A stretch of 59,304 bases of DNA, filler included, from Catajapyx aquilonaris (taxonomy: Eukaryota), in the NCBI GenBank assembly GCA_000934665.2. It is 2 parts of 2 records of this genome, joined end to end, with 100 filler letters (N's around TTAATTAATTAA, not from the genome) between each part and the next. Parts side by side here need not be neighbours in the genome. Positions count along the whole stretch, not along the records: positions 1 to 29,635 come from JYFJ02004770.1; 1 more part is not named here. One strand, written 5' to 3'. Under the pieces are notes generated by a model. It had not been told where the DNA came from. It did no database searches and saw nothing but the letters and a program-made list of their open reading frames with translations. Made by a program: the position numbers and the translations under genes. Shown piece after piece: positions 4,670 through 40,326 of this stretch; within the stretch, counting starts at the first letter, position 1, and each line of letters opens with the position of its first letter.

Positions 4670-5470
4670 TGATGTAACATACTGGATAACTAGTATATCA
4701 TTTACCGGATAACTAGTATATCATTTACTGGATAACTAATATAACATACACTGGATAACTAATATAACATACCTGGATAACTTACATAACATACTGGATA
4801 ACTATAATGTATCATTTACTGGATAACTAATATAACATACCTAGATAACTTACATAACATAATTATACTGGATCACTATAATCTTGCTATAATGTATCAT
4901 TTACTGGACAACTAATATAACAAACTGGATAACTAACATAACATACAACACTAGATAACTTACAAAACATAAACTGGATAACTAATAAAATATACACTGG
5001 ATAACTAATATAGCACACACTGGATAACTAACGTAAAATGCACTGGATAACTAATATAACATATACTGGATAACTAATATAACATACACTGGATAACTAA
5101 TATAACATACACTGGATAACTAACGTAAAATGCACTGGATAACTAATAAAACATACACTGGATAACTAACGTAAAATGCACTGGATAACTAATAAAACAT
5201 ACACTGGATAACTAACATAAAATGCACTGGATAGGCCTAACTAATATAACATGCACTGGATAACTAATATAACATGCACTGGATAACACTGGATAACTAA
5301 CAAAATGGACTGGATAACTAACAAAATGGACTGGATAACTAATATAACATGCACTGGATAACACTGGATAACTAATACGACAAATTCACTGGATAACTAA
5401 TACAACAAATTCACTGGATAACTAATACAACAAATTCACTGGATAACTAATATAGCATAATTATTCCAGT
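4670..5470. repeat. ~22-bp tandem minisatellite (consensus ACTGGATAACTAATATAACATAC)
   Basis: More than 30 imperfect tandem copies of the CTGGATAACTAA core are visible directly. Confidence 0.95.
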
Positions 5471-5957: not shown

Positions 5958-7436
5958 ATGGAGAGCCTGAGCACCCCGCCCCCAGCATCATCATCATCAT
6001 CATCATGCGGTGGTGGTGGGTCATCCTCCGCAGAGTCCCTCTCCGTCATGCAGTCCATGATAGACTTCTCAGCAGAGAGGCTGGAGGGGCTCAGGACGCA
6101 GTGCGTCACATCAGCGGAGCTCACGCAGCAGGAGATCAGGACGCTCGAGGTAAGCACACTGTAGCGCACAGGACATTCACGTTAATTATCAATCAAGTCA
6201 TGTATGACGCTACAAAAGAAAGTGTATGCTTGTTTGTCCGGGACCATGGCAACATGTTGCGATTGACGCGCACGTGTCGATTCGTGTCGGGTATTATAAA
6301 AGAAAAATGTTTGTACCGGGTCCAAGTTCGATTACACATGTCACCAGAAATGAAACGGTCCGTTTACGTCACAACTTAGATAGTTTTCATGTTGATTATC
6401 AGTTAATATTAGCAATATTCATGTCTGACAGTGTAAAAGAAAGTGTTTCCCTGTTTGTTTGTCCAGGTTCTGTTTTCCATGGCAACATGTTACGATTGAT
6501 CGGTGTAACCAGCCATTATTGCAAGTACACTCGTATTATTTGTAATTAACCGGATTGATTAACTTTCGCAGGTTAAGCTAGTCCAGCTGTTCAGCCGCCA
6601 GCTTGTTCTGCGTGCCCGTGCGGCTCAGACCAACCTCCAGCTTCCTGCGGACCTGCACGACGTCCCGTCTCTCCGCCTGTGGCTCCGGGTCGTGGGGCTG
6701 GGCCCCACGGCTGTGGAGTGTGCATGCCGCCGCCTTCCCAACCAGTCCCTAGACTCGCTTCTGGCTCACCATTCATCTAACCCGGACGACGATGGACTCC
6801 GGGCCCTTCTGAGCGACTCGCCCAACCCGGAGGATCTCAGGCGGCTGAGCAGTGCGCTTCGGTGCCTCAAAGTGTGCACGGATATAGTGAAAGGCGGCGG
6901 GGACGGGCTGGCTAGTGAGCGGCTGTACTGGGACAGTTGGGATTGTAGCGAGGGCGGCGGGTCAGTCGGATCTAGTCCACGACCTGCCAGGACACGACAA
7001 GCAAGGGCAAGCGTCGGGAGTGAGGACGGGCGAGTGGCTGGAAACGGGAAGAGTGCAGCGCCTGCTGGAAACGGGCGGGCCAAGCCTGTTAGTGTAGTGG
7101 CCAACCATGCGGTTGGCGCAGTGACTAGTCCTGCTCCTGTGGCTTCCTCTTCACTCGTAGCGGCTCCAGGGGGTGGTTCCGGCGGGTCTGGCTCTTCCCC
7201 CTATTCATCCCCGTGTCCCTCTCCAGCCATCCACCACCCCGGATCACACCCGCTACATCCGCCCCCACGTTTCTTCAGCCCATTGCTGCCCCCGCCGTCT
7301 CCAACCCTGCCGCAATCCAGATTCACCCCGCCGCCTACGCCGCCATTGAGCAAGTCCGGAAAAGGTAATCGACTCGGATCATTCCAATCCAAATCACCTG
7401 GTCCCACATGCTCTCACTTCTCAGAAATTGTGCGTC

Positions 7437-7495
<59 letters not shown>

Positions 7496-10400: not shown

Positions 10401-11359
10401 GTCGCTATAAAAGTCCTGCATGCACCGTGGCGGGACGACCAGCGTACATTGGAGGCGTTCAAGCTGGAGGTTGCCACATTCCGAAAGACTCGTCATGAGA
10501 ACCTGGTCCTGTTCATGGGTGCCTGTATGAAGCCGCCTCGTTTGGCCATAGTCACCTCGATGTGCAAGGGCCGCACCTTGTTTGCCCATCTGCATGAGAA
10601 CCGTGACCGGTTTTCCATCAACAAGACCATCATGGTCGCACAACAAGTAGCGCAAGGGATGGGGTAAGTACCGCAATGATTACCGCATGAGGCTCCCATC
10701 ACGTCCCGCTTCTCCTACAGGTACCTCCACGCCCGAGGGATCCTGCACAAGGACCTGAAGAGCAAGAATATCTTCCTGGAGAACGGGAAGGTTGTGATCA
10801 CCGACTTTGGGCTGTTCAGCGTACGGGCCTTGAGCGTACTGGGTGACGGAAAGGGCGGCACGGCCAAGGGCAGGGAGGAAGGTCCGTGGCTTAGCATACC
10901 GCCTGGGTGGCTCTGCTACCTTGCGCCGGAGCTGGCTCGGACACTCCGGCCTGCATCTGGCGGTGATGGGGATGCACATGACCTTCCATTCTCACCCGCA
11001 TCGGACGTGTACGCATTCGGGTAAGCACCCTCAGATACAAGTGTAACTGCATGTACTTAATAATCATATTATGCAGCACCGTCTGGTACGAGCTGGTGTG
11101 CGGTGAATGGCCATTCGCTGGTCAACCTCCCGAGGCAATAATCTGGCAGGTGGGTCGTGGGGTCAAGCCGGCCCTGGCCCATCTCCAGGCTTCCCGTGAT
11201 GTAAAAGACATTCTCCTCACGTGCTGGGCGTACTCGCCCAACCAACGACCGGACTTCGCTGCGCTCCTGAGGACGCTGGATCGACTCCCGAAGAAGCGGC
11301 TGGCCAGATCCCCATCACATCCGCTGCACCTGTCGAGGTCGGCCGAGTCCGTCTTTTAA
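5958..11359 (+). CDS. ksr: Kinase suppressor of Ras (KSR), 8 coding exons: 5958-6149, 6572-7364, 8364-8918, 8971-9402, 9455-9815, 10178-10663, 10721-11020, 11077-11359
   Basis: CC-SAM region [18 protein letters not shown]...[25 protein letters not shown] and KSNESQL motifs. C1 domain [32 protein letters not shown]...C. Kinase SLREWDIP...GTGRFGTV...VAIK...[13 protein letters not shown]...HKDLKSKN...DFG...WLCYLAPE, ending RSPSHP..RSAESVF. All introns are GT-AG with compatible phases. Confidence 0.95.
7437..7492. repeat. (AAT)n microsatellite in KSR intron 2
   Basis: Uninterrupted AAT run. Confidence 0.95.
7590..8190. repeat. Dispersed repeat family rich in CCATGG(C)AAC / GGACAAACAAAC units in both orientations (related pieces at about 4010-4300, 6220-6500 and 16480-16610)
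   Basis: Repeated GTTGCCATGGACTTGGACAAAC, GGCGAAGTTTGTTGGT and TTTACCATGGCAAC segments. Confidence 0.7.
9860..10165. repeat. Degenerate ~15-bp tandem repeat (ACATGACCTAACCTT) in a KSR intron
   Basis: Recurring CATGACCT / CCTAACCTT units. Confidence 0.8.
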
Positions 11360-18718: not shown

Positions 18719-19809
18719 AATGAAATGTTTATAATAATAAATAATAATAATGTAATATATTTATTTAAGCAGTTAGCGTACGTAATTCCGCATAAAGTGT
18801 AGAGATAATATTTACACAAAATAATATTCTAAATAATGTGTGACTGTTCTCACACATGGATTCCAGTTACACGCATTGCTGCTCATACTGAATTATTAAT
18901 TTATAATTTTATTTCGGGGTTCTATTACGTCCTTGGGTTTTTTGTGTAGGGGATCGGGCACTGCAGCACGTCGGGCCGGATACGTGTTCAAAATATGAAG
19001 GCTGTACTTGCAACGGTTTTTGAGATATGCTTGACAAAAAAACGTCCTCCCAACAAGAACAAGGAAAATTCTCATTGTTGTTTTTACACGAGGATCTTAC
19101 TTATAGGGACTATCGTCCTTGCTATCGTCCCTACAATAAAGCTCAATATTTGTACGTATCTTAATCTATATATTAGTTAGTTAGTTTGTGAGTTTGTTTA
19201 AGAGTTTGTTTGGATGTTTGTCCCTTATAGAAATCCAGGGGAAGGCCCCTACACCGCCTTAAATTAGCATATCAGGGGTTACTTTTTCCAAGGATTTTTG
19301 CCGTTTATGTTTCTGACAGTTGGTGTTTGCATATCTGTTGCAGGATATTTTGTCGGGCCCACGTGGTCCGACATTTATCCCCCCTGCCTGGTTGGAGTGC
19401 CGCCTGGTGGCGGGTACGTTGTAAACTATTTAAGGCATTCAACTTGACGTTTGTGCTCTGCATAATTGTTGTAATGAGAGAAGGATTGTCCTGGAAATTG
19501 TTCCTGATTTGCAGACTGGTGCAAGAACATTAGTAAATCAATTTGTGTTATGTAGTAAAATGCTTAGAGCTTTTTTTCTTATCAATATTATTATACTGTA
19601 TACAGAACTAACAATGATGAATTATTAACACATTGACTTGTTTGCTCATTTGATTTAATGCAAATCATCGATTGGTTCCGCTCTAATTGAATGGGAGTAA
19701 TCATTTTATTCAAAGAAGTGGCTCGTAAAAGATTCATGACGTAAGTGGGGTGGAGGTCTACAAGACGATGCAGTAAGAAATAGTTTGTTTCACTGAAGGA
19801 ACGCTTGAA

Positions 19810-21524
19810 ATGATCCTTCTTGCTGCGTTTATAATCCTCGGGGTCACTAAAGCGGCCGTGACCCAGGTCGACTCTGAAGGTCACCTCCTGGCCGAAGCAG
19901 TGTCCAGGATGTTGATGGAGAATGCTAAGTTGTCCAACTGCTCCCTGGCCATCCTCCACGACGACCCAGTGCTGACCGCAGGCTTGGACCTCCTCCCAAC
20001 AATGGCCGAGGTGCCAAAGGTCATCGTGTCCAGCCACGGGAACATGACAGGAGTGGACGAAACCTCACTAGTGCTTCAGAGGTCGGGCCAGTGCTTCCTG
20101 GTCCTCGTGTGGTCCAAGTGGAAGGAAAGCATCAAACTGATTGAAAAATTCGCGAGGACACTTAGGTATTTAAAAGTCATACGTGATTACATATTGTTCC
20201 ATGTGAAGGAGACACGTCGTCACGATGATGCGGTACGGGAAGAGCTCTATCTACTAAAATACAGACTTGTAATCAATCATCTGAGAAGAGAAGACGGCCA
20301 ACTCAGGTTCAGTCTGTTACAACCTTGCTACTTTTGAACCGTGGAAACTACTCAGTGACCAAGGTGGTCAACGCGACCCGGCTTGACCTCGACCTGTTTC
20401 CAGACTCGACCAGAGACTGGGGCGGAAGGACCATCCAGGTGTGCCAGAGATTGACATGTTTGATCGAGGGTCTTCAGAAGCTCTTGCACTTCAAAGCAGA
20501 GGATACCAAGGATATCTGGAGTAGCGAACGGTACTCGTTTTGCGCAATGGCAGGTGTACAACCTGAATCAAAGTTGCACTTCACACAACCGTACTACACA
20601 GAGAAGGTAGTTTTGGTGACGAAAAATCAACCTTGGAAGTTCTGGGACTACCTGCAAGCACCTTTCTCGTGGCAAGTCTGGTTGGGACTGGCATCATCCG
20701 TTTGTCTGTCAGGGGTCGTGGTTATGGTCCTGTCGGGTCAGAGGTCATCGTGGAAGGTGATACCTCCCATATTCGGACAAGGAATTGACCTGACCTGGCT
20801 GACCGCTCCAACAAAGTGGTTCGTCTGTGCATACCTTCTCTTCACACTGGTGATGACCACTGCATACACATCGAAACTGGTCCAACTAATGACCCATCCG
20901 CCTGTCAAGACAATCAAGCACTGGACAGACCTTCTGGACAACGGGTACGGATGGGGCTTTGGGAAGAGACATGACTTCAGTACCTACGCCAAAATCACTG
21001 GCAACCCACTGATGTCCACTATTGCTGAAAAGGGAGATGAATGCGATGGAGGTACCTCAGGAGAGTGTCTGGCCAAGTGTGTCGCTCGCGTCATGCGCGG
21101 AAAGTACGCCTGCTTCGTGTTCAAGTCTTTGTGGGACATCCACTGGGACGTGGACAAGATGTACCACCAAGACCAGCTGTACCTGATGGACACAGACTAT
21201 CCTGTCGTGTACGTGGCCGTGTCGACCCAAATGTATGGAGTCACGTACGAGACGCTGAACCAAGCTGTGCTGATATTCATTCACTCTGGACTGGTCTCCC
21301 ATGTTCGAAGTCTATTGTTTATAAGACGGGACCAAATTTACTTGCAGTTTTTGATGTCCAAACACGGACAGGCTGTCGACCCTGCAGGTCCTAAGGCTGT
21401 GAACCTGAAGGACCTAACACCACCTTTCTTGATGTTGATCACCGGCGTGTGCTTATCTGTCGTGTGTCTCGCATCAGAAATTGCTGTGGAGAGAGTTGGA
21501 TTGTTGATGCTCTACTGGTTTTAG
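19810..21524 (+). pseudogene. Divergent ionotropic receptor with signal peptide, 1-nt deletion at ~20336
   Basis: ORF 19810-20337 (signal peptide, N-terminal domain) plus ORF 20325-21524 (FTQPYY, APFSWQVWLGL, MTTAYTSKLVQLMTHP, VNLKDLTPPFLMLITGVCLSVVCLASEI). The paralog reads TAC TTT TGC GAC CAC GGA where this copy has TAC TTT TG- AAC CGT GGA. Confidence 0.8.
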
Positions 21525-21903
21525 TGCGTGACGAACACTTATTCACCTCTCTCTCTCTCCTGAGATAATTATTAATGTGAAATGTTAACCCAGCATCCTA
21601 TTAATCCTCTGACAAATTTTGCTTTCATACTGTAATGCTTGGAAGCATCTGGCTTATACGGCATTAATGCTTATAAAATATACATGTCTGACTATCTGAC
21701 CAGTGTTCTGTAGAGAGGAATTGACTTGTTTGCTTATTTCATTTAATGAAAATCATCGATTTGTTCCGCTCCAATTGAGTGAGAGGAATCACTTTAATCA
21801 AGGAAATGGTTGGTAAAATATTCATGACATAAGTGGGTGGAGCGTGGAGGTCTACAAGACGCTCCAGTAAGAAAGAGTCGAATTCACTGAAGGAAGGTTA
21901 GCG

Positions 21904-22558
21904 ATGAGCCTCTTTATTGTGTGCATGACCCTTACGGTCACTTCAGGGATGACCGTGACCCATCAGACCGAGACTGAAGGTCACCTGCTGGCCGAAGCGG
22001 TGTCCAGGATGTTGATGGAGAATGATAAGTTGGTCACCTGCTCCCTGGCCATCCTCCACGACGACCCAGTGCTGACCACAGGCTTGGACCTCCTCCCAAC
22101 AATGGCCGAGGTGCCAAAGGTCATCGTGTCCAGCCACGGAAACATGACAGGAGTGGACCAAACCTCCCTAGTGCTTCAGAGGTCTGGCCAGTGCTTCCTG
22201 GTACTCGTGAGGTTCAAGCTGAAAGAAAGCGTCAAACTGATTGGAAAATTCGCGATGACACTTAGGTACTTGAAGTTCACTCGTGATTACATCTTGTTCT
22301 ATGTGAAGGAGACACACCTTCGAGAAGATGCAGTACGACAAGAGGAGGATCGACTAAAGTACAGGTTGGTCATCATCAATCATCTAAGAAGAGAAGAGCG
22401 TCAACTGAAGTTCAATCTGTTGCAACCCTTCTACTTTTGCGACCACGGAAACTACTCTGTGACCCAGGTGGTCAACGCGACCCGGTTTGACCTCGATTTG
22501 TTTCCAGACACGACCAAACACTGGGGCGGAAGGACCATCCCGGTGTGCCAGAGATTGT
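21904..22558 (+). pseudogene. 3'-truncated tandem duplicate of the preceding IR (N-terminal domain only)
   Basis: Near-identical to 19810-20455 (EGHLLAEAVSRMLMEN...WGGRTI.VCQRL), with a similar upstream region (21720-21900 vs 19633-19810). Homology stops abruptly at about 22558 and no TM part follows. Confidence 0.8.
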
Positions 22559-23335
22559 GGCATTTTATCTTCACATCCTTTTCTTCGCAGAGTTTCACCA
22601 GACACAGGCCTGTTCACTGTCCATTTTCGAAGAAGGGTGTGTCCTCTGCACTGTGGACAACTGACTATTGAAACATCGTAACATTCCCAGGTAAGAGATG
22701 TAAAAAAGAGGTGCGAAGTTATGCAGGATCTCTTTCGACTCATTTCACGATAGTTTCTTTGAAGTTACTCCAGACATGAGAAAGTGAATGCCAATTACAG
22801 TATTTTTGGAGGGAAAAAAGAGAAATGACACCCCCCCCCCTCCCTGGCATTGATTTAGTGAATAGGATGACTGTTCAGTGGGTTCCACAAATCAATGAAT
22901 TTTTGAGCCATCTGTAGACCACACAAAGTGACATCGATAGAGCTGCAAAACCCGGTAAAGATCATTTCTGTTCACTGTTATCGTCTTCAAATGAAAAGGG
23001 CGGAACGCTAAGGTCAAAAATGAGACTGGGGGAAGGGGGGGGGGGGGTAAAGTTCGCCATTTGTTTCTCTTACCCTTCCTTGGGTTTTTGCGTCACATGC
23101 ACCCCCACAAATAATGTACATCGGCAGAGCTTCAAACCCAGATAAAATTCATATTTGTAACTTTTCCAGTTTTCCAAATAAAAAGACACAAAATTTCAAC
23201 CGCTTTTTGCAGGTGTTCCTATATTATGATATTTTGTACAACAACTGTATATCTCTACACTTACGTGAAACTTGGTACATACCGTCCATGACTTTTTGTA
23301 TATTCTAACTTTGTTACTACGCATCGTAGGGATTC

Positions 23336-26300
23336 ATGATGGCAGCAGCACCTGTGGCAGCGGAGGACAAGAGCCTGGCAGAGTTGCATTGGGCAGCAAA
23401 GAATGGGTCTCTGACCACTGTCCAGCTCTTGTTGGACAGAGGGGACAATGTGGACGCCCTGAGCAGGAATGGGGTCACCCCTCTGATGGTGGCCTCCAGA
23501 CGGGGTTGGCTGCAGGTGTGCCAGGAGCTGGTCAAGAGGGGGGCCAGGGTCAATCGGGCCTCCACTGACCAAGAGAAGACTGCCCTGCACGAAGCGACGG
23601 AGAACAACTGGCCGCAGGTGTGTCGCTTCCTGCTGGAGGAAGGGGCCGACCCAATGGTGAAGACCAGGTCAGGGGACACCTGTCTCCACATAGCTGCGGA
23701 ATGTGGACACCTCGTTGCGGGGAGGCTCCTCTTGGAGTGGGGGGCAGATCCGGAGGAAAGGAACGGGGAGAAGATGACGCCTGTTGGGCTAGCTGTGAAG
23801 AGAGATCGAAGTGTAATGACCCCGTTCCTCTTAGGGATTAAAAAGGACATTCACATTATGGCGGCCATGGGAAAGGAGGAAGATGTCGAGAGGTTGTTGG
23901 AAGAAGGAGTGGAGATGAATACGAGGAATGATAATGGGGAGACCCCCCTGATGATCGCGTGTAGGGCCAGGAAGGTGGGCCTCTGCAAGTCTCTTCTGGA
24001 CGCGACTCGAAGGGACGAAGTGGACGCGAAGGACGAGGACGGAAGGACCGCCCTTCACTGGTCTTCCGGAAGCGGCTTGGCTGAGACATGCAGAATCCTA
24101 CTGGTCAAAGGGGCCTCGGTGGACGCCCGTACCATCCGCAGTGGACACACCCCTCTGCACTTAGCCTGCATGTTTGGCCATCTGGAGGTGGCCAGGGTCC
24201 TCTTGTTGGAGGGAAAGAGTGACCCCCAGGCCACAAACAATGATAACCGCACACCCGCCTCACTCGCTCTTCTCAAGACGCATGTGCAAGTGCATCGATT
24301 CATCATGGGTCACTTGAACTCAACTCATGCCAGTCAGGACAGGTGAGTGAATGAATCGTCACAACACTCTTCATGCATTAAGCTGGTTCTACACTGACTT
24401 CTTTTCTCTCAAGGAACAGTCCAGTTAATCGTTACGAGAAGTTGCGAGAAACTGAGCCAGAGGTTCTTCCTAATACTGTAGTAATTTCATATGAACCTGA
24501 AAACTGTCCACATTTTCGTTTATTGATTAATATTCTAAAAATGCAAGTTTATTGTCGATTTCAGATCGGACGCACACAAGACAGAAGTCCAACCTACCTT
24601 TCAGTCGAGGTACATGCAAGACTTCAACCACTTGGGTCTGCTGGGAAGAGGGTCGTTCGGGGATGTGTTTAAAGCAGAGTACAAAATTGTGAAGGCTATC
24701 TACGCCGTGAAGAAGGTTGTGCTGCCGGAAGAACAAAAGTACAAGGACAAAATACTAAGGGAGGTCCGAGCACTGGTTGTGCTGGAGCACGACAACATCG
24801 TCAGGTACTACCACTCTTGGGAGGAACACCCACCTCGCCACGTCCAAAAGGAATGGGACGCATCGCTTCTCAACTGCGACATGTCCACTACCGAGGGTCA
24901 AGAAGCCTCTGAATACTTTACCGCACCGCTGCAAATCTCAGGACCAACCATGGACTTGCTCTACATCCAGATGGAGTTGTGCCACAAGAAGACTCTGGGA
25001 CACAGGCTGGAAGAGGGATTCAAGCTCTACAAGTTTGCGAAACTGACTCTCTTCCAGCAGATCGTGTCAGGGGTCTGTTTCCTCCACAGCAAAAATATGA
25101 TCCACCGAGACCTCAAGCCGCATAATGTCCTGTTCGCTCTAGATGGAAAGAAGATCAAAATAGCGGACTTTGGTCTCAGCACCACCTTGAATGAGGCCCG
25201 TGAACAGCAGTCGGGTCAAGATTCCTCCTCAGATAGAAAACCCAAGTCACAGGAACACACAGTGGGTGTTGGGACCAAAATGTATATGTCCCCCGAGCAA
25301 CTGGAAGGAATGAGATGTGGCCACAAATCCGACGTGTACTCCCTTGGCCTGATCCTTTATGAAATTCTGAATCCCTTTGGAGATTACAAGGCAGAGAGGA
25401 GACGGGTCTTTGGCCTCCTCAGAAATCAGGACCCATACCCATCTGAGTTTCTTCGACTGCACTCGAGTGAAGCAGAGATCGTTAGGAAGATGCTTCTTCC
25501 TGATCCATCACAACGTCTGGCATCCCTAGCTGTGGCGAGAGACGTGAAGTCATTACTGGATGTCATGCAAAAGGTGAGATTATACGGGGTCTGTTTACAC
25601 AGAATAAGGGAATAATCATTATTTTGGTCATCACTGATTAGTTACCTAGAAAATAGCGATTCACTATTGTCACTCCCCGTCTCGTCCTGTTTCAGTTGGA
25701 CACCCAGGAATACGTGGATGCTTGCGTGGTAGGTAGACTGTCTGATGTTGTGGACTATGTTGACAGGAGGGGAGTGGACGTGGAGTCGACGGTGGATCTG
25801 GTGTACAGGTGGAGCGGGATCCATTGGGCTTCATTTATGGGTCGCTCCTCGGTGGTCAGATTTCTTCTCGACAGGGGTGTGGACGTGGACCAAGGGGTTG
25901 AGAGGAATTGGAGCCCCATGCGCCACGCTGCATGGAGTGGTCATGAGTCCACGGTCCACCTCCTCGTGGAGAGAGGAGCAGACCCAACCAGGATAGACGT
26001 GGATGGCATGACCCCTGGAGATTGGGCAGAAGAAAGAGGCCACTCTTCACTCTCCCTCCTGCTGAAGCAAAAGGAGAAGGAATGGCGTGATTCACACGCT
26101 GGTCAGGAGCAATCTTCGGGACAAACCGAACAGGCAAGGCTGTATTCCTAACTAGAGAGCAAGTAGCTATTAACATGTACGTACCAAAAGCAGTGTCGGG
26201 ATACTGTGAACCCTATCTTCTGGGCTTATCACCTGCCGAAGGGTTTTGCAGCGGGTGCTCACCTGAAACCGCCACGAGACATTTCCCAGAGCATTTATGT

Positions 26301-28021
26301 GGCGACCCTACCGGACTAAGGCTGAACTATATAGGTCCGGTAGGCGGTAGCCTTAGTCCGGTAGGGTCGCCACATAAATGCTCTGGGAAATGTCTCGTGG
26401 CGGTTTCAGGTGAGCACCCGCTGCAAAACCCTTCGGCAGGGGTTGGGTGGGGAGTGACCTAACCTGAGTCTTCTACAACCATGCTGTGAACCAACATAAC
26501 GCGCTCCGGCCACGGGCCACCGGGCGCCCGTGGCGTGGATTTGAATTGGGGATCTGATGCGGGAGAAACCATGAGGTACGGTACCATGGGAGCAAACAGA
26601 TCCCGTGGGCTCGGTATCCAACTTGCTCAGTCAGCCTCCATGTGGCCGGGGGAGGTGTGGGCTGGACTGGTGGGGCAGGGATATAGCAGCCGGCCTACTT
26701 TGACCTATATTTCTTGGATTACCGTTCGCCGTAGAAAAAAAAAACCCCCGATGGTACATATCACCGGAATCAGGATTTTCTGTAAATTTTAGAGACCAAC
26801 TTGTATTTTGAGTGGACTGGCCCTTTAACTTGTCGATCACTGGGACGCTTACCTTACGTGACTGATGTTCTCGTTGGAGATATCAGTGTTTTAAGTACGG
26901 TACTGTATTTTGTAGTAGTAGCTACAAAGTCAATAACCAGCAGATGGCGCGCGTGTCCTGATCCAGCCATCCCACCCTTCAGCCCGCGCAATACGCAATT
27001 TCCCCTTATTCCTTTGTTCTTGGTCCTCACCCACTCTTGATATCCAGTCCTGTAGTGAGCCCTATAGCCTACACTATCCATCCAGACATGTAGAAGGGAG
27101 CTTCCCTTCCCTACGCAGCCCAAAGTTCTAACAGTTCTGCATTTTCAGGTGAGGATTTTTCTGTCCGCCTGTGAAGAAGGAAGTTTGGAGGAAGTGAAGG
27201 GGGTGGTTGAGGGAATGGGGGGAGTGGGAGGACTGTTGGGGGAGGTTGGGAAGGATGGGTTGGGTGGATTACACCTGGCAGCGAAAAGTGGTCATGAAGA
27301 GGTGGTGTCCCTCTTGTTGGAGGAAGGGTGGCCTGTGGACCAGGAAGTGGCTGGAGGATGGACACCCCTCCATCTGGCAGCCGATGATGGACAGCCTTTG
27401 ACGTGTCAACTACTGATCAGAAGAGGCGCCAATCTGCAGGCTATGGGCAGGGACGGATACCAGCCCATCCATGTGGCTTCAGCAGAAGGCCACATCCCAG
27501 TGGTTGACCTCCTGCTGGAGGAAGGGGTCGAGGTGGAGGTCAAGGGGCGGGGTGATCAGACCCCTCTTCACAGGGCAGCAGACAATGGCCGCCTGGAGAT
27601 GGTCCAGTTCCTGGTGTCTGAAGGGGCCAATCTGCAGGCTTTGGACAGTAGAGGAGACCAGCCCATCCACTTGGCTTCAAGAGAAGGCCACCTCCCAGTG
27701 GTTGACCTCCTGCTGAAGGAAGGGGTCGAGGTGGTGGTCAAGGGGAGATGGAATCAGACCCCTCTGGATATGGTCCAGTTCCTGGTGTGCAAAGGGGCCA
27801 ATCTGCAGGCTTTGGACAGTGACGGAGACCAGCCCATCCACTTGGCTTCAGGAGAAGGCCACCTCCCGGTGGTTGACCTCCTACTGAAGGAAGGGGTCGA
27901 GGTGGAGGTCAAGGGGTGGGGTGATCGGACCCCGCTTCACACGGCAGCATTGAATGGCCGCCTGGAGATGGTCCAGTTCCTTGTGTCCAAAGGGGCTGAT
28001 CCAGCAGGGGACAAGGACTAG
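23336..28021 (+). CDS. Ankyrin-repeat / eIF2-alpha (PERK-like) kinase / ankyrin-repeat fusion protein; exons 23336-24342, 24565-25573, 25696-26133 (or stop at 26151), 27149-28021
   Basis: Exon 1 has about 8-9 ANK repeats (LHWAAKNG, TPLMVAS, TALHEA, TCLHIAA, TPLMIAC, TALHWSS, TPLHLAC). A phase-2 GT-AG intron joins it in frame to SRYMQDF..LGRGSFGDVFKA..YAVKK..ILREV..EHDNIVRYYHSWEEHPP..LYIQMELC..HRDLKPHN..DFGL..HTVGVGTKMYMSPEQ..KSDVYSLGLIL. A phase-0 intron joins this to further ANK repeats. The link to the last exon needs a GC donor (CAG/GCAAG at 26134). Confidence 0.8.
26232..26440. repeat. Perfect inverted repeat: 92-bp arms (26232-26323, 26349-26440) with a 25-nt loop
   Basis: The arms are exact reverse complements by inspection (CCTGCCGAAGGG...CCGGACTAAGGCT / AGCCTTAGTCCGG...CCCTTCGGCAGG). 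Confidence 0.95.
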
Positions 28022-28102
28022 GATGGATTCACACCCGCTGGCCTTGCCGAGAAGGAGGATCACACAGAAGTGGCTCAATATCTAAATGTGAGACCTTTTA
28101 TT

Positions 28103-28449
28103 TTTTATAATTTTTTACGTTGCCCCATGATAGGGCCAGAGGCCCTTATAGGGGGGTGGAATACCACCATTTTTCCTACAATTGTCTGATTTTCTTCTAA
28201 CACTGGTGCGAGGATGAAATGACATGGGGTAAGGATAGGGATTTTTGAGGAGGGAACATGTGGTGCAAGTGCAGTGTCTGAAAAGGGGTCACGTGCTGTT
28301 CCCCAGGAGGTTAGGTTGCCAGACACCTCCTTGGTGCAGGGCAGAGACCGTCCCGACGCAGGTGGAAGGGAACTCCCAGGCGGGGATCGAACCTGGGACC
28401 TTTCACTCAGCAAGCCGAGACGTTACCATCTCGGCCACCACTCCTCCCC
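28103..28449 (-). mobile_element. tRNA-derived SINE, family A
   Basis: Minus strand carries A-box TGGCCGAGATGG and B-box GGTTCGATCCC. The body matches the copies at 46180 and 48552. It has an A-rich tail and a near-identical TSD TGAG(A/T)CCTTTTATT. Confidence 0.85.
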
Positions 28450-29635
28450 TGAGTCCTTTTATTACGCATGAATTTGATGTTTTCATGATTCCGTGGCACA
28501 GTTAAAAACAACAATATCGCAATCATTTTCGAAATATGAGTCACAACACAATCATCTGGCTCACCTCACACCATCATGAGAAGATGGCTTTTGACTAGTT
28601 ATTTGTGGTTGCAGATGCTTATCATGTGATGCGTCGCCAGGAATGGTGGACATTCTGCCAGTGTTTCATATTACCACCGATAGGAGGCGGACGATCATTT
28701 GTACGGGATGAACCAGAGTTCTCTGACGGAAAGAGACACCAGGATCTCACTACTTTGTGGACCAATCTTAAATATGGAATAGCCATTTTGTCACACACAT
28801 CGTATATTTCATACACACTTTGAGATCAATGAAATATCTCAATTGAAAGTAGCTTTTTCGGGCCCAAGAGCAAAATGCAACGCAAAACCTCATAAGCGGA
28901 ATGAGACACCATTATCTCCCAAACATAATTGCAATATTAATTTTTTAGAGTCACCAGGGTATGCAGGAGTCTATTACCTTCATACACATTGAAAAATCAA
29001 ATTAATTCGATCAAAATTAACCGAGTTACAGCTGTTTTACACTTCAAACCCTATGTAGCTTATGGGCGCAGGAGTCGCAAGGCCGATGTCCACCATTCCT
29101 GGCGACGGAAAGATTATGAATAATTAGGCACTGGAGATGCTACCGGTAGACCATTACAAAAAAAAATGCGTCCAGTATTTCCCATCTCTTGCTTTGAAAT
29201 ATTTAAATGTAATCAGACTCTAGCATGTACCGAAGGATATTAAATTTTCGTAGCTTATCTGCATCCCAAATATCCAATGGCTACTCTATTTGGCACTTTT
29301 GTTCCCCTCCCAATCTGCTCGCCGGATTCGTCGTCACTAATATGCCCAATAAATAAACCAGGAAATGAAATTGACAATTTTCAATTTACATTTGAAAGAG
29401 CTGTTAATTCACATTCTAAGATATTGGTACAGTAGTTATAATACATTCATATACACAACTCCACATGCCATGCACTGTACTTGGCTTACCAATAATATAT
29501 TACACTATGGAACAAAATCGAACCTTTTTTGGTATACGTACTTGCTCTGATCTGAAAATATTGGGACACCCCCAAAAAATGGAGTGGTGGGGTTATACAC
29601 AGGATGTGATAAAAAGTTTCCATTAAGATTATCTG

Positions 29636-29735
29636 NNNNNNNNNNNNNNNNNNNNNNNNNNNNNNNNNNNNNNNNNNNNTTAATTAATTAANNNNNNNNN
29701 NNNNNNNNNNNNNNNNNNNNNNNNNNNNNNNNNNN
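29636..29735. other. Artificial contig spacer: 44 N + TTAATTAATTAA + 44 N
   Basis: A 100-nt gap containing a six-frame stop linker at 29680-29691. Confidence 0.95.
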
Positions 29736-32083
29736 CTAATAAATTATTAGGTTCTTGGAGGACAAGGTTATATTCTTATTAGAAGGGCCCTTAAAAGTTG
29801 ATACAGTAATATTGCTAATTAGAACGTACTAATTGGAATATACGTACCTTGTCCTTCAAGAACTCAACCTTTATTGACCATTCCATTCAGCTCTTAAGTC
29901 ATTACTTTTTAATAATTTATTATAATTATTCAACCTTTGTGCACTATTATATTGGTCAGTTTATTGAGTAGGCTACATTACATTAATGGTGTATGTTTTT
30001 GCAATGTGTAGATCGAACTGGCCATGGCCAAATACTGTATAGTATATGCAGGTTACGGTGAATTTGTAACCTACCGAAACTTTGGGGATGGTAGAGGGAT
30101 TCTAGGCCATCATTTTAAGTACAGTATATTTATCGTGGGTCTCCGCAACATATTGTTAAAGAGGTAATTAACATTAAATAAAAGTGAATTACACCACCTT
30201 CTCTGTGTGTGTGTGTGTGAGTGTGTACCGGTCTTCAATAAACTCTGGGGACGGAAATGGGAGTTTTTACTGTAACTGTGGGGATGTCCTCCCATTTGTG
30301 GGGACATTTTGGTCCCCACGTGTCCAACGCCTGGCTTTCTACTGCTTTAGTGGGGACACTAGTGGGGACATGTCCCCACAATTTCGTTTCTTTAAAATCC
30401 ATTTATCTCAACCTAGGTTACTTATGGTAGGGTAGGTTAGGATAGGTTAGGTTAGCATAATTTATGTTAGGATAAGAGCAAAAACATTCCCTTGAGTGAA
30501 AAAAGGGTAGTAAGACCTCCGTGGCGGAATGAAAGTATACTGAAACAAGGCAGGCGCACGTAAGAACTTCACCAATTGATTTAAGTTGTACCATAGGTCT
30601 TACTCAAGCAATTACCAATTTACTGCTCATGAAATCACCTTTCTGAAAACAGTTTGTGGAATTTTCGTCGTACTACTAGTTACTTCTAACTTAGCAGTAC
30701 CAGTGCAGTGCAATATAGCTAATAGCAATAGTAGCACGACGAAAATTCCACTAATAAATTTTCCGTGAGCCACTCCATATTAGTGTTTTATGAAATTAGG
30801 AACTTCAATATTAAGCACATTGAATTTCTATACTATTGGTGCGAATTATTGCCATGAATCATTCATGCAGAATCGTCACCTCTTTTAGATGCTGATTTTA
30901 ACTCCAATGTTTAATTTCTCACATGTAAAAGTGAATTGGTGAATTTTAGAGGGTATTTTTTGATTGGGTTCTGCATTTTCTGGAGAGAAAATTTCCAAGT
31001 CTGTGAGGATGGGTTTAGCTTTTTTTTCTTCGTTTTTTTTCTTCTTTTCATTATAAAACCCTCCCTACTGCTCTGAGTAGTTTGCAGCAGTAATTTTTAC
31101 AAGCCGTTCCATACAGTACTTGAGAATTGCTTGAGTAAGACTAACTTATGGTACAGCTTAAATCAATTGGTGAAGGTCTTATGTGCGCCTGCCTTGTTTC
31201 AGTACTTTCATTCCGCCACCACACAAGGGAATGTTTTTGCTCTTATTTCAGTTCTTTCTTTAAACCCCTTCGCAATACCAGATATACCGCCATCGCCTAG
31301 GTTGTCGCTTACACGTAGGCTAAACTCTCGCAGAGCAGCGGGGTAACATTTCGCTAACAAATGGAGAGGTTCTAAATGAAGTATTTCATGGAAAAAATTA
31401 GTGAAAAAAATCATAACTTCAATCCTGCAGCAGGTGGAACTGCGAGGCTTTGGACATAGGTCCGCACCATCCTACTGAGCATTCGACCCTTTGATGAAGG
31501 AACCAAATTCCGAATAGTTATTGAGCATAAAAATAGAAACGTATTTTTTAGTGGTTTTTAATTTTTTGCGGTGTTTTGAAGAGGAATTGGGTTTAGCTGT
31601 AAATGGTAGGAATGCACTTCATGACGGTGGGGATCGGTGTTCATAATTTTGAAGCTCTTATCTTTTGTGTAATTTGAGTTAGGGCGAAATAAAAACACGT
31701 AACAACAACAAGTAGGAAAAATTCATTGTTGAAAATTGTTGTACGGTCTTACTTAGGGGCTACCGCCCCTAAAATACACTAGCTTTCAAAAGTTGTGGCC
31801 CATAGCTTATTGAGGACAAGTCTGTCGTGTGCCAGTGGTAGTCATGCAAGCAACCGAGAATTTGCTCATGTCATTCGTTGTTGCAAACAGTCCATTTTAA
31901 GGTCGTCTAAAGCACTGTTTTTACTCTCGAAAAGAATTAGCGTAAATCTTGGCCCGAATATATGGGCGAACTGAACTTCCTGAAATATAGCTGCTGATCA
32001 TTTTTGTATTTGAAAAAAGCGAAAAAAAACATTGCAAATCAATAATGCAAAAGTTCTCTACTACTTGATTCCCTCTTCCGCAG

Positions 32084-35000
32084 GAAGTGGCCGTGGCTCC
32101 AAACACGTGGGATTTCACGCATGTTGCCAACTTCCCAACAGGCCGGATATTTGTACTACGGAATCGGTTCATCGACGACCCTTCTTACTTCTGGACACAG
32201 GAGTCAAAGTACTACAATTACAAGTACATGCTCAACGTTGTAAACCAGGTTTTGCATTGTGGCCCGGATCCTGATCCTGAGACTACGAGAAGCTTCAAGA
32301 GAGCGGATACATTTAAGTTCATGAAGGAGTTCATAACAAAGATGGCCGTCACACGGGGGAGTACGGTTTCATCACTACCACCTGAACAGACCGTGAAGGG
32401 AATGATCCGCAACGGTGCTCGACCCTGTGAAATATGGCCCGATCCGAAGGTGTGTCTTTTCTGTCTAATTTAACGAATTTCCAGCATCCCACGCTACCCA
32501 CACCATGCGTATGGTAATAGTCTGCCGTGGTTTGTCGTCCGGGTGTCACTCTCCGATTAGCAGACACGCCTTATTTCCATCTAATGTTCATGTCGAATTT
32601 TTCAACTAGCCCACATGAAAGTGACTGAGCTTATTTCAATATAAGTCCTTTAGGACCCATGATCAAGACCTGTTGTGGCATGAATGAGGGTCTGCAGCAG
32701 CCAGAATTTCATGAAATTAAGTCATGTATTCAATCCGACATACTATAATGTTGTTGTGGAGCCTGACACTCCAAAGTTCTGAAGGTTATAAAGTTAGCAT
32801 CGTTTCCATTTTTGAACTGTGATAAAAATGTAGCAAACTAATTATTGCTGGCAAGGAATGAGAAGTTGCTGGCAAGGAATGAGAAGTTTTCCCCGCCACC
32901 TTTCGAGAGAGCAAGTTAGTAGTCTTACGCTTCCCCTGAGCCCTTACACCTGCAAATCGAAGGTAAACTCATCATGACAAGGATTGGAGATCGCCACCAT
33001 ATGTGAGTCATAGAAAACTATTACCCTCAAACCGCCTCTCGTTCTTTGTGCCCCGTGGCCAAGTCACTTAATTTAGTGTATGGTCTAGAAGAAAGCCTTT
33101 CCGTCCATGCCTGAGCCGACAACTTTTAAGGCCAGACAAAGTAAGGAAAGTAACCAAACCAGTCTCTTAAGTGTCGAAGAAAGCCTTGGCTTCCTCCCCT
33201 GATCTCGCGCCTTTTTTCGCCAGAGGAATATACAGACTTGGCGCGTTTTTTACGAGTGCGTTTTTGGTGAGATGTCACTTTAATGAAAATGTTCCCAATA
33301 ATCATTTCAACTGTGAAAATGAACCGAAGCAGGTTGGCATAGTGGATAAGGCGTCCGACTGCTAATCGGAAGGTCCTGGGTTCGAATCCCGGTGCCGGCA
33401 ACTCTAACCGTGGTTTTCTGTGGTTTCCCACGGTTTCTCCAGGAGAATTCCGGAGTTGTTTCCTAATAAACAGGCCACAGCCGCCCCCTTCCTTTCCTAT
33501 CCTCTCCCAAAGAGCAATAAGTAAAAATGCAAGCAAAGAGTTCCAGACAAAACAAAAATTCCCCCCTAAAGAGCCGCCGGCTGATAACGGGGTATGAATT
33601 ATTAACTGTGAAAATGAAGTACCACTGCCAGTCCCCTTCCATTAATATGCCATGTAGCGGAAAGTCCTTTAATAATTATTAACTGTCATGCATTAATGTA
33701 AGGTGCCATTTGCAGGTATGTGGCAACACACCAGAGGACAAGGATGACGAAGACAGCGATCGAGAGGTGATATTGATAGAAGCCACCGAGGAAGCCCTGA
33801 CAGAGGCGCTGGGCCAGAATCGGCAGAGGAATTTTCTCGCTAGCTTGGCTGAGGAACGAGAACGGGAAGCAGAAAAGAGGGCGAGAAGGATGCTCTTTGG
33901 TCCGAGCGATGGGGACAGAAGGGGTAGCGAGACAGAGGGTTCCATAGGAGATGATGGTTTCTATGCCTCCTACAAGTCCAACGAGACCGTCATCCTGGTG
34001 TACAACTGCTCTCTAGCCATGATTCGTGGAGCTGACCCAGAAGACATAGAAAAACTCGTAGACTCCCATCAGAGGGTCCAAGGATATGATGTTCCGCCAG
34101 CTACGGGCGGACATGACCGTCCCGAAGTCCGGAAATCGGAGCAAGTACTTGCCATGCTCAAGGAACTTCTCTTAGACTACAAGATAAAGTGTGGCGCTCG
34201 TCCTGCCCACGAACGACCCAGGGCAGCACAGGAGAGGCATAGGCTCAAAGGAGCTCTTGTTCCGCTAGCTGCCGCCGCTGCCATAGCTAAGGGCGGACAT
34301 GACGGACTGCAGGGCCAATCCCGGAGTATTGGCGAGATATACGCCAAAAAAGCTACAAGTAAGAGGCAGCTTATTGATGAGCAGATGAAGCTTTTAAAGC
34401 GTTTGGAATGCGAGGTAGAAGCGGAGGGGAATGAGTGGATGAGGAAGAGGGGTATGGGTACAGGTGGTGATGAGAAAAAGGGTTCCAGAGGAGAGGCTAA
34501 GGCTAAGGCTAAGGCCCATGGACGAGCTCAGACGAGCGTTCTTTCCCTAACCTCTGCTTCTGACCGAGAAAGGAGAGATCAAGGGACTCGCAGGTCTAAA
34601 GGATCTGTTGTTCCGCCAGATGCCTCCGCCAAAGCTAAGGGCAGACATGGGGGAAGGCAGGACCAAGCCGGGCTCGATGTGAAGATATTTGAAGAAGAAA
34701 GGGTGCAGCTTACCTTAGAGCTGCGCAAGAGGAATCAAATACGAGTAGCTTACGAACGAGCCATGCTAACAGAGGAGAGTAGGAATAGTCTTCGGGCCGC
34801 TGGGAATGAAGCAAGTGGAGGTCAAGAGGGTACCAGGGGAGATGCTGATGATTGCCACGAATCCACCGGCGACATGTTGACTGCTTCCTCTAATACGTCG
34901 GTCCCAAGAGGCACCCGTCTGGGCACCCGCTGGACCCAAGGATCTGTTCCGCCACGTTCCTCCACAACTAAGGGCGGACTTGACGGAAGGCGGAACCAAA

Positions 35001-35221
35001 CTCCGACTTCTATCCTGATACGTGAGGAAGACAGAAAGGAACTTGGCGATGTCAATGCCTATTGGGCGTGTGTTTTTAAGCGTCTTGAGTGTGAACTAAA
35101 CAGGGCAGCACTAGAGTGGTGGGACCAGCAGGCCCTCGCCGCTAGGGATGCAATAGCTAAAGTGCCCTATGTTGATCACCCTAATGACTCAGATCACGAG
35201 GATGACGCTACACAGGGCTGA
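32084..35221 (+). CDS. Divergent Rpn13/ADRM1 Pru-domain paralog 1 (exons 32084-32449 and 33716-35221; first exon not found)
   Basis: EVAVAPNTWDFTHVANFPTGRIFVLR...YFWTQE...VVNQVL matches the second half of the Pru domain. Exon structure and tail (EVILIE..E.AL...RG.DPEDIE...SEQ..SVVPP...EDDAT) are shared with the 37196 gene. Confidence 0.65.
33324..33603 (+). mobile_element. tRNA-derived SINE, family B, with 15-bp TSD, inside an intron of paralog 1
   Basis: Head TGGCATAGTGG...TCCGA-CTGCTAA-TCGGA...GGTTCGAATCCC. Body GTGGTTTTC..CTCCAGG..AGGCCACAGCCGC. TSD AACTGTGAAAATGAA at 33309-33323 and 33604-33618. Confidence 0.85.
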
Positions 35222-37195: not shown

Positions 37196-40100
37196 ATGCC
37201 CGGATTTCCCTTATGGGGCAGCCCCGAAGTGTGTCGCTTGGTCGCCTCTCGCTCTAAGGCGTTGATCGAGTTCAAAGCCGGATTGATGATGAGAGAGGGA
37301 AGTAAGGTTTACCCTGATACGAGACGAGGCTGCGTCTTCATTTACAAGGGAGAAGACAGCCGCATACACTTCTGCTGGTGTCAGAGGAACTTTAAGGGTG
37401 ATCACCAGGTAGGCCTTATTCATATTGTATGTATATGAGGCGAGGGGTTCATTTTTCTTGCCATGACGCAGTAGCGTCATGGTTGCAGAACAATCAATCA
37501 GTGTAAGACCTGGGAGATTTAATGATTATGTATCGTGGGTCTCCACAACATAGTTACAGAGATAATTTTGCCCATTTTATTATGTACAGTACAAGTCCTA
37601 CCATGCAGTGCTCGCCTAAAGGTCTTTGTCATTAGTTATACGTAGAAGAGGGCAATATAGATAAGCTCTCTACTTGATTCCTTCTCTTGCAGGATATGAT
37701 CGTGGATCCAAATGATTGGGATTTCTTTCCATATCCTGTCAGCACAACAACCCGGGTATATGTACTAAAGCATAATGACTCCTCGCGCGACAAATTCTAC
37801 TGGCTGCAGGAGCCAAACGACTACGATGATGACGAAATGCTCGATCTTGTCAACGAGCTTATCCAAAGCGGCCCTGATCCTCAACATGGTGACGACGGGA
37901 ACTCGGAAAAACTTGAGTTCATCAATGATTTCATGAAAAAGATATCAGTGATTCCGGGCTCTGCGGTTTATTCGCTAGATCCCTCGACGACAGCAGCGGG
38001 AATGATCCGCAACGGTGCTCATCCTTTCTACTTATGGCCCAATAATGAGGTACGACTCTGCTTCATTGTCCTGTCTGATTGTAGTGCCCGAAATGTTCCA
38101 CATCATGGCCATGGGCAGTGAGTACTGTACATTTCCAAAATAAGTAGCCTATACATGATGGTGTCTCATAATCATTCAAACAAACTTGGTGTGTGTGGAG
38201 GGGTTTAAAATGTGGCAGTCTACATCCACAACATAGGAAAATGATGTAAGGTACCTGCGTACTCTTTGAGTAATGATAGTTGTCATAGTCTGACACTGTG
38301 GCACCAAACGACTACTAGTACTGCACATGATGTGGTCCGATGCTAACCCTAGTTGTTCACCTTACACTTGACCTTACAAGTTTGTCAGAACGCACCCTGC
38401 ATACAGCAGCTTCTTTAAATCTCCGTATTGGTTAGCGATTAATGTGGCCTTCAAATGCTTATTGTAATATCTTTGTGCCAAGAGTTGTACCCACAAGAGA
38501 GTAATTCTCCACATCAGCCTATCATGTGGGTGACTGTATACCAACTTACGAATCCCAGTGTCCGTGAAAGATTTCTTCATGGTAAAAGAATGCAAAAAAC
38601 CTGGTTTCTGCCTAGTAATTTTGTTACGACATCGCTAGGATTTTCTAGGCACAAAAAGTGGCAAGAAAACAAGCCGACATTTTTCCTGTTTGAAGTGGGT
38701 TTGAAATATGTACAGTACACTGCATGCCTGGCAGGAACCTGTATAAAAGGAACACAATGTAAAGAAAAAATAGGCACCGCATGCACATAATATGATCGGA
38801 CACTGGGACAATTCGCATTCTTGTATAACTTCCGTATACGTCTAGTATGTACCGTATGTGTTAATGTAAGGTCCCATGTACAGGTACCGACAGATACTTC
38901 TACTGGTACGGCCACAGCAGAGGAAGGGCATCCCTCAGGGGTGGATCGTCAAGTGATGTTAATAGAGACTGACGAAAAAGCCCTGGCAACTGTGCTTGGC
39001 AAGAAGCGTTCAAGCAGACTTCTTGCAGCCATGGCCGAAGCACGAGACATTGAAACAGAAGAAAGGAGGAACAGGTGGTGCTGGTGGCTGGGGGAAGTAG
39101 ATGATGAGGATAACTATGTAATTCCCCCGCCTCCCGTTTTCACGTGGAGCAAGACTAACATCGACATATTCATGAGCGGTATGGCCATCCTTCGTGGTAT
39201 TGACCCAGAAGACATAGAAGTACTCACAGGCACTCAGAGGAAATATAAATTCCGTCCCGATACTTGGAGTTCGGAGCAATCACATGCATTGCTCAAGAAA
39301 TTTGTCTTAAACTATCAGAAGACGAAGGCTCGTCTGAGCCACGACCGACCCCGGGCAGGAGAGAAGAGACGGACGCCCCGAGCATCTGTTGTTCCGCCAG
39401 CTGCCGCCACCACAGCTATGGACGGAAGGAGGGACCAAGCCCGGAGACGAGTCTCAAAAGATTTGGAAAGGTCTAAGCTTGAGGAACAGCAGCGGAAGAT
39501 TTCTGAGCTAATGATGCGCGAGCTAGAAGAGGCGTCAGCGGAGTGCGAGAGGAGGCATGCTCGTCTGCGGAGCGGTAGGAATGGAGGGGATGAAGAGAAA
39601 GAGGGTTCCAGCGGAGATGCTGATAATTCCCACGGACCTACTATCGACACGTTGATGAGCTCTCTTTCCCTGACCGCTGATTCTGGCCAAGGAGGCAGGG
39701 GTCAAGGCACCCGCAGGTCGCAAGGATCTGTTGTTCCGCCAGATGCCGCCGGCACAGCTAAGGGAAGACTTGACGGAAGAAGGGACCAAGCCCGGACCGA
39801 TGTGCAGAAACCCAAGCAAAAACTGTCGAGGATCAGACAGCGTGTCTTAGACCAGCGCAAAAAGAATCAAATACTGGCCGACCAACGAGCCATGGCAGAA
39901 GAGGATAAGAGGAGGAGGGTTCGTCGGGTCGTTGGTAATGGAGGGAGTGGAGGTCAAGAGGGTACCAGCGGAGTCCACGGGCCCTCTTCCTCTACTGCTT
40001 CTGTCCCAGGAGTCAGTGGTCTGGGCACCCGCAGGCCCCAAGTATCTGTTGTTCCGCCAGCTAGAATCGTCGCAGCAGCTAAGGGCGGACATCACGGGAG

Positions 40101-40326
40101 GGACCAAACCCTGAATAATATCCGGAGACCCCAGGAAGAACGGGAGAGGATGAGGGACTATGGCAATCAGCACAGTGTTCGTACGCGTATCGCCTACGAA
40201 CGATTCAAGGTAGCAGAGAAGTGGTTGAATCAGAAAGGCGCCGCTAAGGAGGCAGGAGATCAAGAGTACTATGGAACCGGCGACCACTCAGATTCCTCAG
40301 ATTACGAGGATGACGCTACGCATTGA
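37196..40326 (+). CDS. Divergent Rpn13/ADRM1 Pru-domain paralog 2, ~670 aa (exons 37196-37408, 37693-38049, 38884-40326)
   Basis: KALIEFKAGLMMREGSKVYPDTRRGCVFIYKGEDSRIHFCW.QR.../DMIVDPNDWDF...RVYVLK...FYWLQEP.DYDDDE..VNELI aligns by eye to ADRM1 Pru (LVEFRAGKM..VTPDKRKGLVYI...IHFCW...RVYVLKF...FFWMQEP). Introns are phase-0 GT-AG. The long charged tail has no recognisable DEUBAD domain. Confidence 0.8.

Follow-up and report, generated by a model that had tools for sequence, protein, structure and literature searches.

A candidate ankyrin-flanked protein kinase of eIF2-alpha kinase type in Catajapyx aquilonaris

Ankyrin repeats (ANK) and a kinase domain occur together in one chain in several described proteins, among them RIPK4/ANKK1, TNNI3K, ILK and DAPK1. 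In RNase L an ANK array is followed by a pseudokinase and a KEN nuclease, and binding of 2-5A to the ANK array activates the protein. The eIF2-alpha kinases of invertebrates are, in the textbook account, the pair GCN2 and PERK. In passages of a published account, PKR is described as reported from vertebrates only and as not found in invertebrates, which have two eIF2-alpha kinases (PMC5025754). Here we describe a locus on the + strand of a 59,304-nucleotide stretch of the Catajapyx aquilonaris genome (assembly GCA_000934665.2; the whole stretch is called the window, and consists of two parts joined by 100 filler letters, with positions 1 to 29,635 from JYFJ02004770.1), in which a kinase domain of eIF2-alpha kinase type lies between ANK-encoding exons. 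As judged from sequence, it is most likely a real and intact gene for a cytosolic ANK-kinase-ANK protein, in which a kinase from the eIF2-alpha kinase family has flanking modules of a new type.

The kinase domain and the proposed gene that carries it

The kinase domain is contained in a single exon (exon B, Table 1). Its translation holds GRGSFG, AVKK, ILREV, HRD, DFG, SPE, SRYMQDF, IVRYYHSWEEHPP, LYIQMELC and HTVGVGT, and HTVGVGTKMYMSPEQ, its activation loop, follows the PERK/HRI type. The catalytic residues K49, E66 (helix alphaC), HRD 180–182, N187, DFG 201–203 and SPE 242–244 are kept, as are activation-loop T232 and T237; from these residues the kinase is most likely catalytically competent. 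When the domain was compared with 37 rows of the eIF2-alpha kinase family, all the family motifs were present: the SRYxxDF lead-in, IVRYYxxW, the insert between strands beta4 and beta5, LYIQMELC and (H/R)Txx(V)GT..Y(M/A)SPEQ. The insert is about 40 residues long and was modelled with low confidence (mean predicted local distance difference test score, pLDDT, 54–79 at residues 101–130). Both sets of motifs quoted in a preliminary description of the locus, the catalytic ones and the eIF2-alpha kinase signatures, were thus found in exon B, and the database matches point the same way. Searches of PDB sequences with phmmer returned PERK (1.8e-57), GCN2 (4.5e-44), HRI (3.2e-41) and PKR (1.7e-38), with CDPK1 as the best other kinase (1e-25). 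The top 19 PDB sequences (119.8–198.2 bits) were 18 named eIF2-alpha kinases and one 1673-amino-acid 'non-specific serine/threonine protein kinase'; the next match, CDPK1 at 93.8 bits, lay 26 bits below this group. An AlphaFold model of the exon B kinase, built from a 44-row alignment, reached a pLDDT of 89 and a predicted template modelling score of 0.87. In Foldseek the model matched mouse PERK best (3qd2, E 9e-26, TM 0.90 on target), the top 11 matches all being PERK, followed by PKR and GCN2. Assignment of the kinase to the eIF2-alpha kinase (PEK) type is therefore supported both by sequence and by predicted fold.

From 23.3 to 28.1 kb the + strand holds four open frames (23330–24346, 24539–25615, 25657–26151 and 27068–28021), and Pfam recognised ANK or kinase families in each, as the preliminary description had laid them out. 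The three junctions it had named (24342/24565, 25573/25696 and 26133/27149) are phase-compatible when read from the sequence. An in-frame TAG stands 9 nt 5' of the start codon of exon A, which ends in phase 2 at the donor CAG/gtgagt (24342/24343); exon B begins at the acceptor tttcag/A, and AG plus A across the junction make an Arg codon. Exon B ends in phase 0 at AAG/gtgaga (25573/25574) and exon C opens, also in phase 0, at tttcag/T. Since the kinase frame is closed 26 nt 5' of the exon B acceptor and its first Met is residue 17, directly before the Gly-rich loop, exon B needs an upstream exon. The guanine-plus-cytosine content (GC) of the exons is 0.50–0.58 and that of their third codon positions (GC3) 0.61–0.70, exon A having 0.58 and 0.70; GC is 0.52 in the spacer at 26152–27148. 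Both measures fall exactly at the proposed exon borders.

Joined, exons A, B and C give 2472 nt and 823 amino acids, and we infer from the splice sites that they are probably spliced together as one gene for a soluble protein made of an ANK array, a kinase and a short C-terminal ANK module. The predicted length of 823 residues thus stood; the longer form of 1108 residues, computed by script up to the TAG of exon D, is in phase as had been claimed, but it requires a GC donor, and its stop falls within a repeat. The array ahead of the kinase had been put at 8–9 repeats. The array itself was found; counted by eye, and with the caps included, it has about 10 repeats, which can be read as two runs of about 5 (with 4 in exon C and about 10 in exon D counted in the same way). 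A single-sequence fold of exon A (pLDDT 44.6) yielded neither a repeat count nor a shape. Pfam detected no families besides ANK and kinase in the gene blocks, and hence no canonical PERK, GCN2, HRI or PKR sensor domain. No membrane segment or signal peptide was found either, and the peak 19-residue hydropathy of only 1.35 suggests a cytosolic protein. On both counts, the missing canonical sensors and the missing anchor in the endoplasmic reticulum, the first description proved right.

Table 1. Proposed exons and intervening segments of the ANK-kinase gene (window coordinates)
Feature	Position	Strand	Content
Exon A	23336-24342	+	ATG 23336, N-terminal ankyrin array; Ank_2 5.1e-56, Ank 7 stretches
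Intron 1	24343-24564	+	222 nt, GT-AG, GC 0.36
Exon B	24565-25573	+	whole protein kinase domain, 336 aa (P0001); Pkinase 5.8e-47
Intron 2	25574-25695	+	122 nt, GT-AG, phase 0, GC 0.39
Exon C	25696-26151	+	four ankyrin repeats, polar tail, stop TAA 26149-26151; Ank_2 6.1e-11
3' untranslated region/spacer or candidate GC-AG intron	26134-27148	+	CAG/gcaagg ... tttcag/G, phase 0 to phase 0
Exon D	27149-28087	+	ankyrin array of ~10 repeats, in-frame TAG 28019-28021; Ank_2 2.2e-64

We asked whether this combination of domains occurs elsewhere. The best identity to any database protein was about 44–45%, and the window's own protein was absent from the collections searched. With exons A, C and D as reference (phmmer, E 1e-3), no match was found in any of the 327 kinase homologs. 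Among the 26 top representatives, Pfam found double-stranded-RNA-binding domains (dsRBDs) in nine, a PERK-type propeller in one, GCN2-type domains in two and ANK in none. Ordinary ankyrins dominated a search with exon A, and only 2 of the 120 matches listed carried a kinase, both of them unrelated and TKL-like (P0345 and P0367). A protein atlas comparison gave generic kinase clusters only. No description of an ANK plus eIF2-alpha kinase layout was found in the literature searched, as judged by titles and abstract openings. In these homologs and this literature, then, the architecture is new, as had been proposed.

Placement within the family, and proposed activation and substrate

To place the kinase, domains were cut from named matches by phmmer coordinates. 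In a quick tree of 50 rows the Catajapyx kinase and the PKR, HRI+GCN2 and PERK groups formed one polytomy. Ten rows that sat on long branches, were incomplete or closely duplicated others (x_Pristionchus, x_Glossina, GCN2_Oikopleura, HRI_jgi139, OUT_CDPK_Mucuna, GCN2_ena101, PKR_Aquarana, x_Ridgeia, x_Dimargaris and OUT_jgi47) were removed before a careful tree of 40 rows and 338 columns was built. There the kinase was sister to the other 37 family rows (support 80/82) and was split from the outgroup at 100/100; because that outgroup consists of two prokaryote-type kinases only, the tree alone cannot prove family membership. The PERK (89/94), PKR/PKZ (100/100) and HRI+GCN2 (92/95) clades each left the kinase out. 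Within the limits of that outgroup, the kinase stood beside the family as a whole and in none of the four canonical clades. In approximately unbiased (AU) tests no union was rejected (PERK, p = 0.262; PKR/PKZ, p = 0.162; HRI+GCN2, p = 0.077). Of the earlier phrase 'PERK-derived kinase', the PEK type is supported and descent from PERK is possible: the tree puts the kinase outside the PERK clade, and the AU test does not reject the union.

The exon B kinase was also predicted to form a homodimer, with a score of 0.48 against 0.02 for the best of three controls. Of 30 proteins solved as one-chain pairs 20 scored this high, as against 1 of 23 whose structures are single chains; for eukaryotes the figure was 17 of 29, and only 1 of 7 for those without an older solved relative. 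The runs agreed in at least 75% of contacts, with a partner pLDDT of at least 78. The predicted interface, a symmetric one, involves the N-lobe alone (residues 19, 41–44, 64–76, 80–86, 132 and 135). The model suggests that the kinase is probably regulated through dimerisation.

Taken together, the best overall explanation, which we favour tentatively and at a little short of an even chance, is that exons A, B and C form the gene of an ANK-controlled PEK-family kinase that acts on eIF2-alpha or a closely related docking substrate. In such a scheme the ankyrin arrays would control dimerisation by binding a partner protein or ligand; the kinase would be switched on by back-to-back dimerisation of its N-lobes and autophosphorylation of T232 and T237, as in its relatives; and the active enzyme would phosphorylate Ser51 of eIF2-alpha, or the related substrate, with translation lowered as a result. 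The sensor role given here to the ANK arrays is pure inference.

Several of the observations weigh against this explanation, and the clearest concern helix alphaG. In the column of PKR T487 all 37 eIF2-alpha kinases carry Thr; the Catajapyx kinase reads PFGDYKAER, with Asp273 followed by one extra residue. The alignment puts the site at PFxT, and a count back along human PKR from its C-terminus agrees; the Thr of PERK 'LTDVR' was rejected as the T487 equivalent. Helix alphaG was modelled with high confidence at residues 275–286, with D273 preceding it. Since Asp is, like Thr and Ser, a favoured helix N-cap residue, the change from Thr to Asp may be tolerated. The residues that match PKR E480 and E490 are retained; the kinase reads KIADFG where 36 of the 37 compared rows carry Gly. 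The sites named in sections of one study fit the PFxT numbering, and the same sections report that eIF2-alpha is docked by helix alphaG, which is non-canonical in eIF2-alpha kinases, and that T487 of PKR stabilises this helix and is among the few highly constrained sites in a mutational scan (PMC11556786). Functional scores there are positive for T487S and negative for T487A and T487P, T487I appears in the table as well, and T487D was not sampled (PMC11556786, supplementary file 4). Judged from the alignment, it is in having Asp at the alphaG cap that the kinase departs most clearly from the eIF2-alpha kinase family; eIF2-alpha is a plausible substrate, and the earlier label of 'translation-shutoff kinase' is to be taken as a hypothesis, with Asp at a site where every compared eIF2-alpha kinase has Thr. 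In the careful tree, moreover, the kinase has a long branch (1.09) and falls in none of the four canonical clades, and the dimer score may stem from the model's memory of the solved PKR, PERK and GCN2 dimers, and so express likeness and not binding.

Several of these features would also fit a gene that is real and a kinase that is active but directed away from eIF2-alpha, the ANK arrays recruiting some other substrate to a neo-functionalised signalling kinase. The Asp in place of an invariant Thr and the one-residue insertion fall at the start of the docking helix, the KIADFG motif and the long branch add to the divergence, and ankyrin arrays are in general protein-binding scaffolds. However, the rest of the PEK signature is kept, from SRYxxDF, IVRYYHSW, the insert and LYIQMELC to the activation loop and the two residues that match E480 and E490, and with a confidently modelled helix alphaG the exchange of one favoured capping residue for another may be conservative. 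We regard a change of substrate as somewhat unlikely, yet as a serious competitor. On a further proposal, the locus could be one of several copies in a lineage-specific family of eIF2-alpha kinases gated by ankyrin repeats, a family that would serve as a PKR-like arm of innate immunity in an arthropod. Its fast-changing ANK arrays, with duplicated or alternative ANK exons, would recognise pathogen molecules or act as guarded decoys, and binding would lead to dimerisation and translational shut-off in infected cells. This extended proposal we consider improbable.

Two further explanations question the gene itself. The intact frame of exons A to C could reflect only the recent history of a gene copy that is decaying or not expressed, in a family with fast turnover, as the stop inside a repeat and the 27-nt deletion breaking another repeat in exon D, the perfect 92-nt foldback 81 nt past the exon C stop and a SINE-like element after exon D (all described below) would suggest. 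The damage is limited to exon D, however; the 2472 nt of exons A to C are open, all catalytic residues are present, the splice sites are strong and GC3 is high, and decay of the whole gene looks quite improbable. That the ankyrin and kinase blocks are separate neighbouring genes, joined only by an artefact of reading frames, gains some credit from the great frequency of ANK-only genes. It has to contend with an exon B that lacks a start codon before its conserved N-terminal lead-in and is flanked by an acceptor and a donor, with an exon A whose consensus donor leaves phase 2 and whose last codon is completed by the first base of exon B, and with introns of merely 222 and 122 nt; we hold it to be very unlikely indeed. 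The preferred explanation remains the gene of exons A to C for an ANK-controlled PEK-family kinase.

Exon D and the surroundings of the gene

The region downstream of exon C is less straightforward. The GC donor that could link exon C to exon D resembles the usual context of such donors. The TAG of exon D lies inside an ankyrin repeat, and the frame runs on beyond it for 22 codons, still resembling a terminal ankyrin repeat, to a good donor, AAT/gtgaga (28087/28088). A search 3' of 28087 for an exon ending in a CaaX motif gave no convincing candidate. Ahead of its first repeat exon D lacks a start codon, and it must therefore be spliced to something upstream. It opens like exon C (residues 39–129 of C against 38–128 of D, ungapped, 36% identity), and the two exons have phase-0 acceptors, each of which fits the phase-0 donor of exon B, so that exon D could be an alternative to exon C and not its continuation. 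It would be used either after exon C by way of the GC donor or in place of exon C straight from exon B.

Within exon D a two-repeat unit occurs three times (27413–28001), copies 2 and 3 being 66% and 87% identical to copy 1, at spacings of 198 and 171 nt; the shorter spacing is due to the loss of 27 nt (9 codons) from one unit, in which part of one repeat is missing. On this basis exon D is read as a duplicated C-type ankyrin exon that has been damaged in this assembly by a stop and a broken repeat; as part of the gene it is doubtful or in decay. The GC donor, the in-frame TAG and this deletion had no place in the preliminary description. The + strand at 23837–29239 has neither AATAAA nor ATTAAA, which weakly favours a transcript running beyond exon C. 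A perfect 92-nt inverted repeat (26232–26323 and 26349–26440, with a 25-nt loop) begins 81 nt past the exon C stop. At the settings used, a repeat search found no second copy of it in the window, and it could be a foldback or an insertion like a miniature inverted-repeat transposable element (MITE), or a hairpin of the 3' untranslated region. A promoter and terminator scan of 26100–27200 stayed at chance level, its models being bacterial and irrelevant to a eukaryote.

Directly 3' of exon D lies the first copy of a repeat found three times in the window in both orientations (28190–28449, 46180–46441 and 48632–48815; 81–99% alike). Its translation holds a tRNA-like 'GIEPG' stretch, which suggests a tRNA-derived short interspersed nuclear element (SINE). 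Two N runs of 44 bases each (29636–29679 and 29692–29735), 1.5 kb 3' of exon D, were taken as assembly gaps and could hide a further exon. On the 5' side, an ionotropic-receptor-like gene (Lig_chan, 20229–21524) has its 5' part (19632–20453) repeated 2.1 kb downstream at 21720–22557 with 75–92% identity. This second receptor copy (open reading frame, ORF, 21871–22671) is without the channel part, lies just 5' of the ANK-kinase gene and is probably a truncated duplicate.

Elsewhere in the window, a KSR-like gene on the + strand (6563–11359) has a C1 domain (8955–9440), a split kinase domain (10167–11359), a His-rich run and long Pro/Ser-rich stretches. A tandem gene pair (32069–35221 and 37678–40326) has in each member an Rpn13/ADRM1 Pru-like exon (E 5.4e-05 and 9e-10), followed by a charged, low-complexity ORF of about 510 amino acids without a Pfam match. 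A THAP domain and helix-turn-helix fragments of a P-element transposase at 2840–3716 are probably a transposase remnant. An AT-rich minisatellite at 4633–5269 with a 23-nt period (13 overlapping 138-nt copies) lies in the lowest-GC part of the window. A single 621-amino-acid ORF at 51905–53770, with a weak match to DUF7869, possibly encodes a mobile-element protein.

Comparison with described kinases

If the preferred explanation is right, the gene would add to the invertebrate pair of GCN2 and PERK a soluble member of the eIF2-alpha kinase family regulated by ankyrin arrays. Should it still target eIF2-alpha, it would be a new input to the integrated stress response and a candidate for a cytosolic switch, missing so far in arthropods and possibly antiviral, that shuts off translation; should the substrate have changed, it would show re-use of the PEK kinase scaffold. 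Either way it would provide a natural test of how far the alphaG docking helix can change.

The described ANK-kinase proteins RIPK4/ANKK1, TNNI3K, ILK and DAPK1 share with the Catajapyx protein the presence of both domains in one chain, but they belong to other kinase classes and none was among the best 60 PDB matches. The two oomycete-type proteins recovered with exon A (P0345 and P0367) also join ANK and kinase in one chain, but are 25–26% identical and have HNDLK for HRDLK. RNase L offers a precedent for an ANK ligand sensor that drives dimerisation of an adjoining kinase fold. The resemblance is one of design only: by Pfam the Catajapyx protein has no KEN domain, it keeps all catalytic residues, and neither RNase L nor IRE1 was among the best 60 PDB sequence matches of its kinase.

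With PKR (EIF2AK2) and PKZ of fish the protein shares the kinase family, a predicted cytosolic location and the plan of a variable N-terminal sensing module on a conserved kinase, and the AU test does not reject their union. PKR and PKZ differ in sensing nucleic acid by dsRBDs or Z-alpha, neither of which the Catajapyx protein has, and in lacking a C-terminal module. From PERK (EIF2AK3) it is set apart by the absence of a luminal domain of beta-propeller type (the PERK matches in our searches carry PQQ_2 or beta-propeller families), of a membrane segment and of a signal peptide, by ANK arrays on both sides of the kinase, by an insert of about 40 residues against a gap of about 175–270 residues in 13 PERK rows (phmmer domain coordinates), by its position outside the PERK clade in the careful tree (with a union not rejected by the AU test) and by Asp at the alphaG Thr. 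PERK is nevertheless the best match in both sequence and fold, and the two have in common the HTxxVGTxxYMSPEQ activation loop, an insert that separates beta4 from beta5, and an N-lobe dimer, which for the Catajapyx kinase is a prediction.

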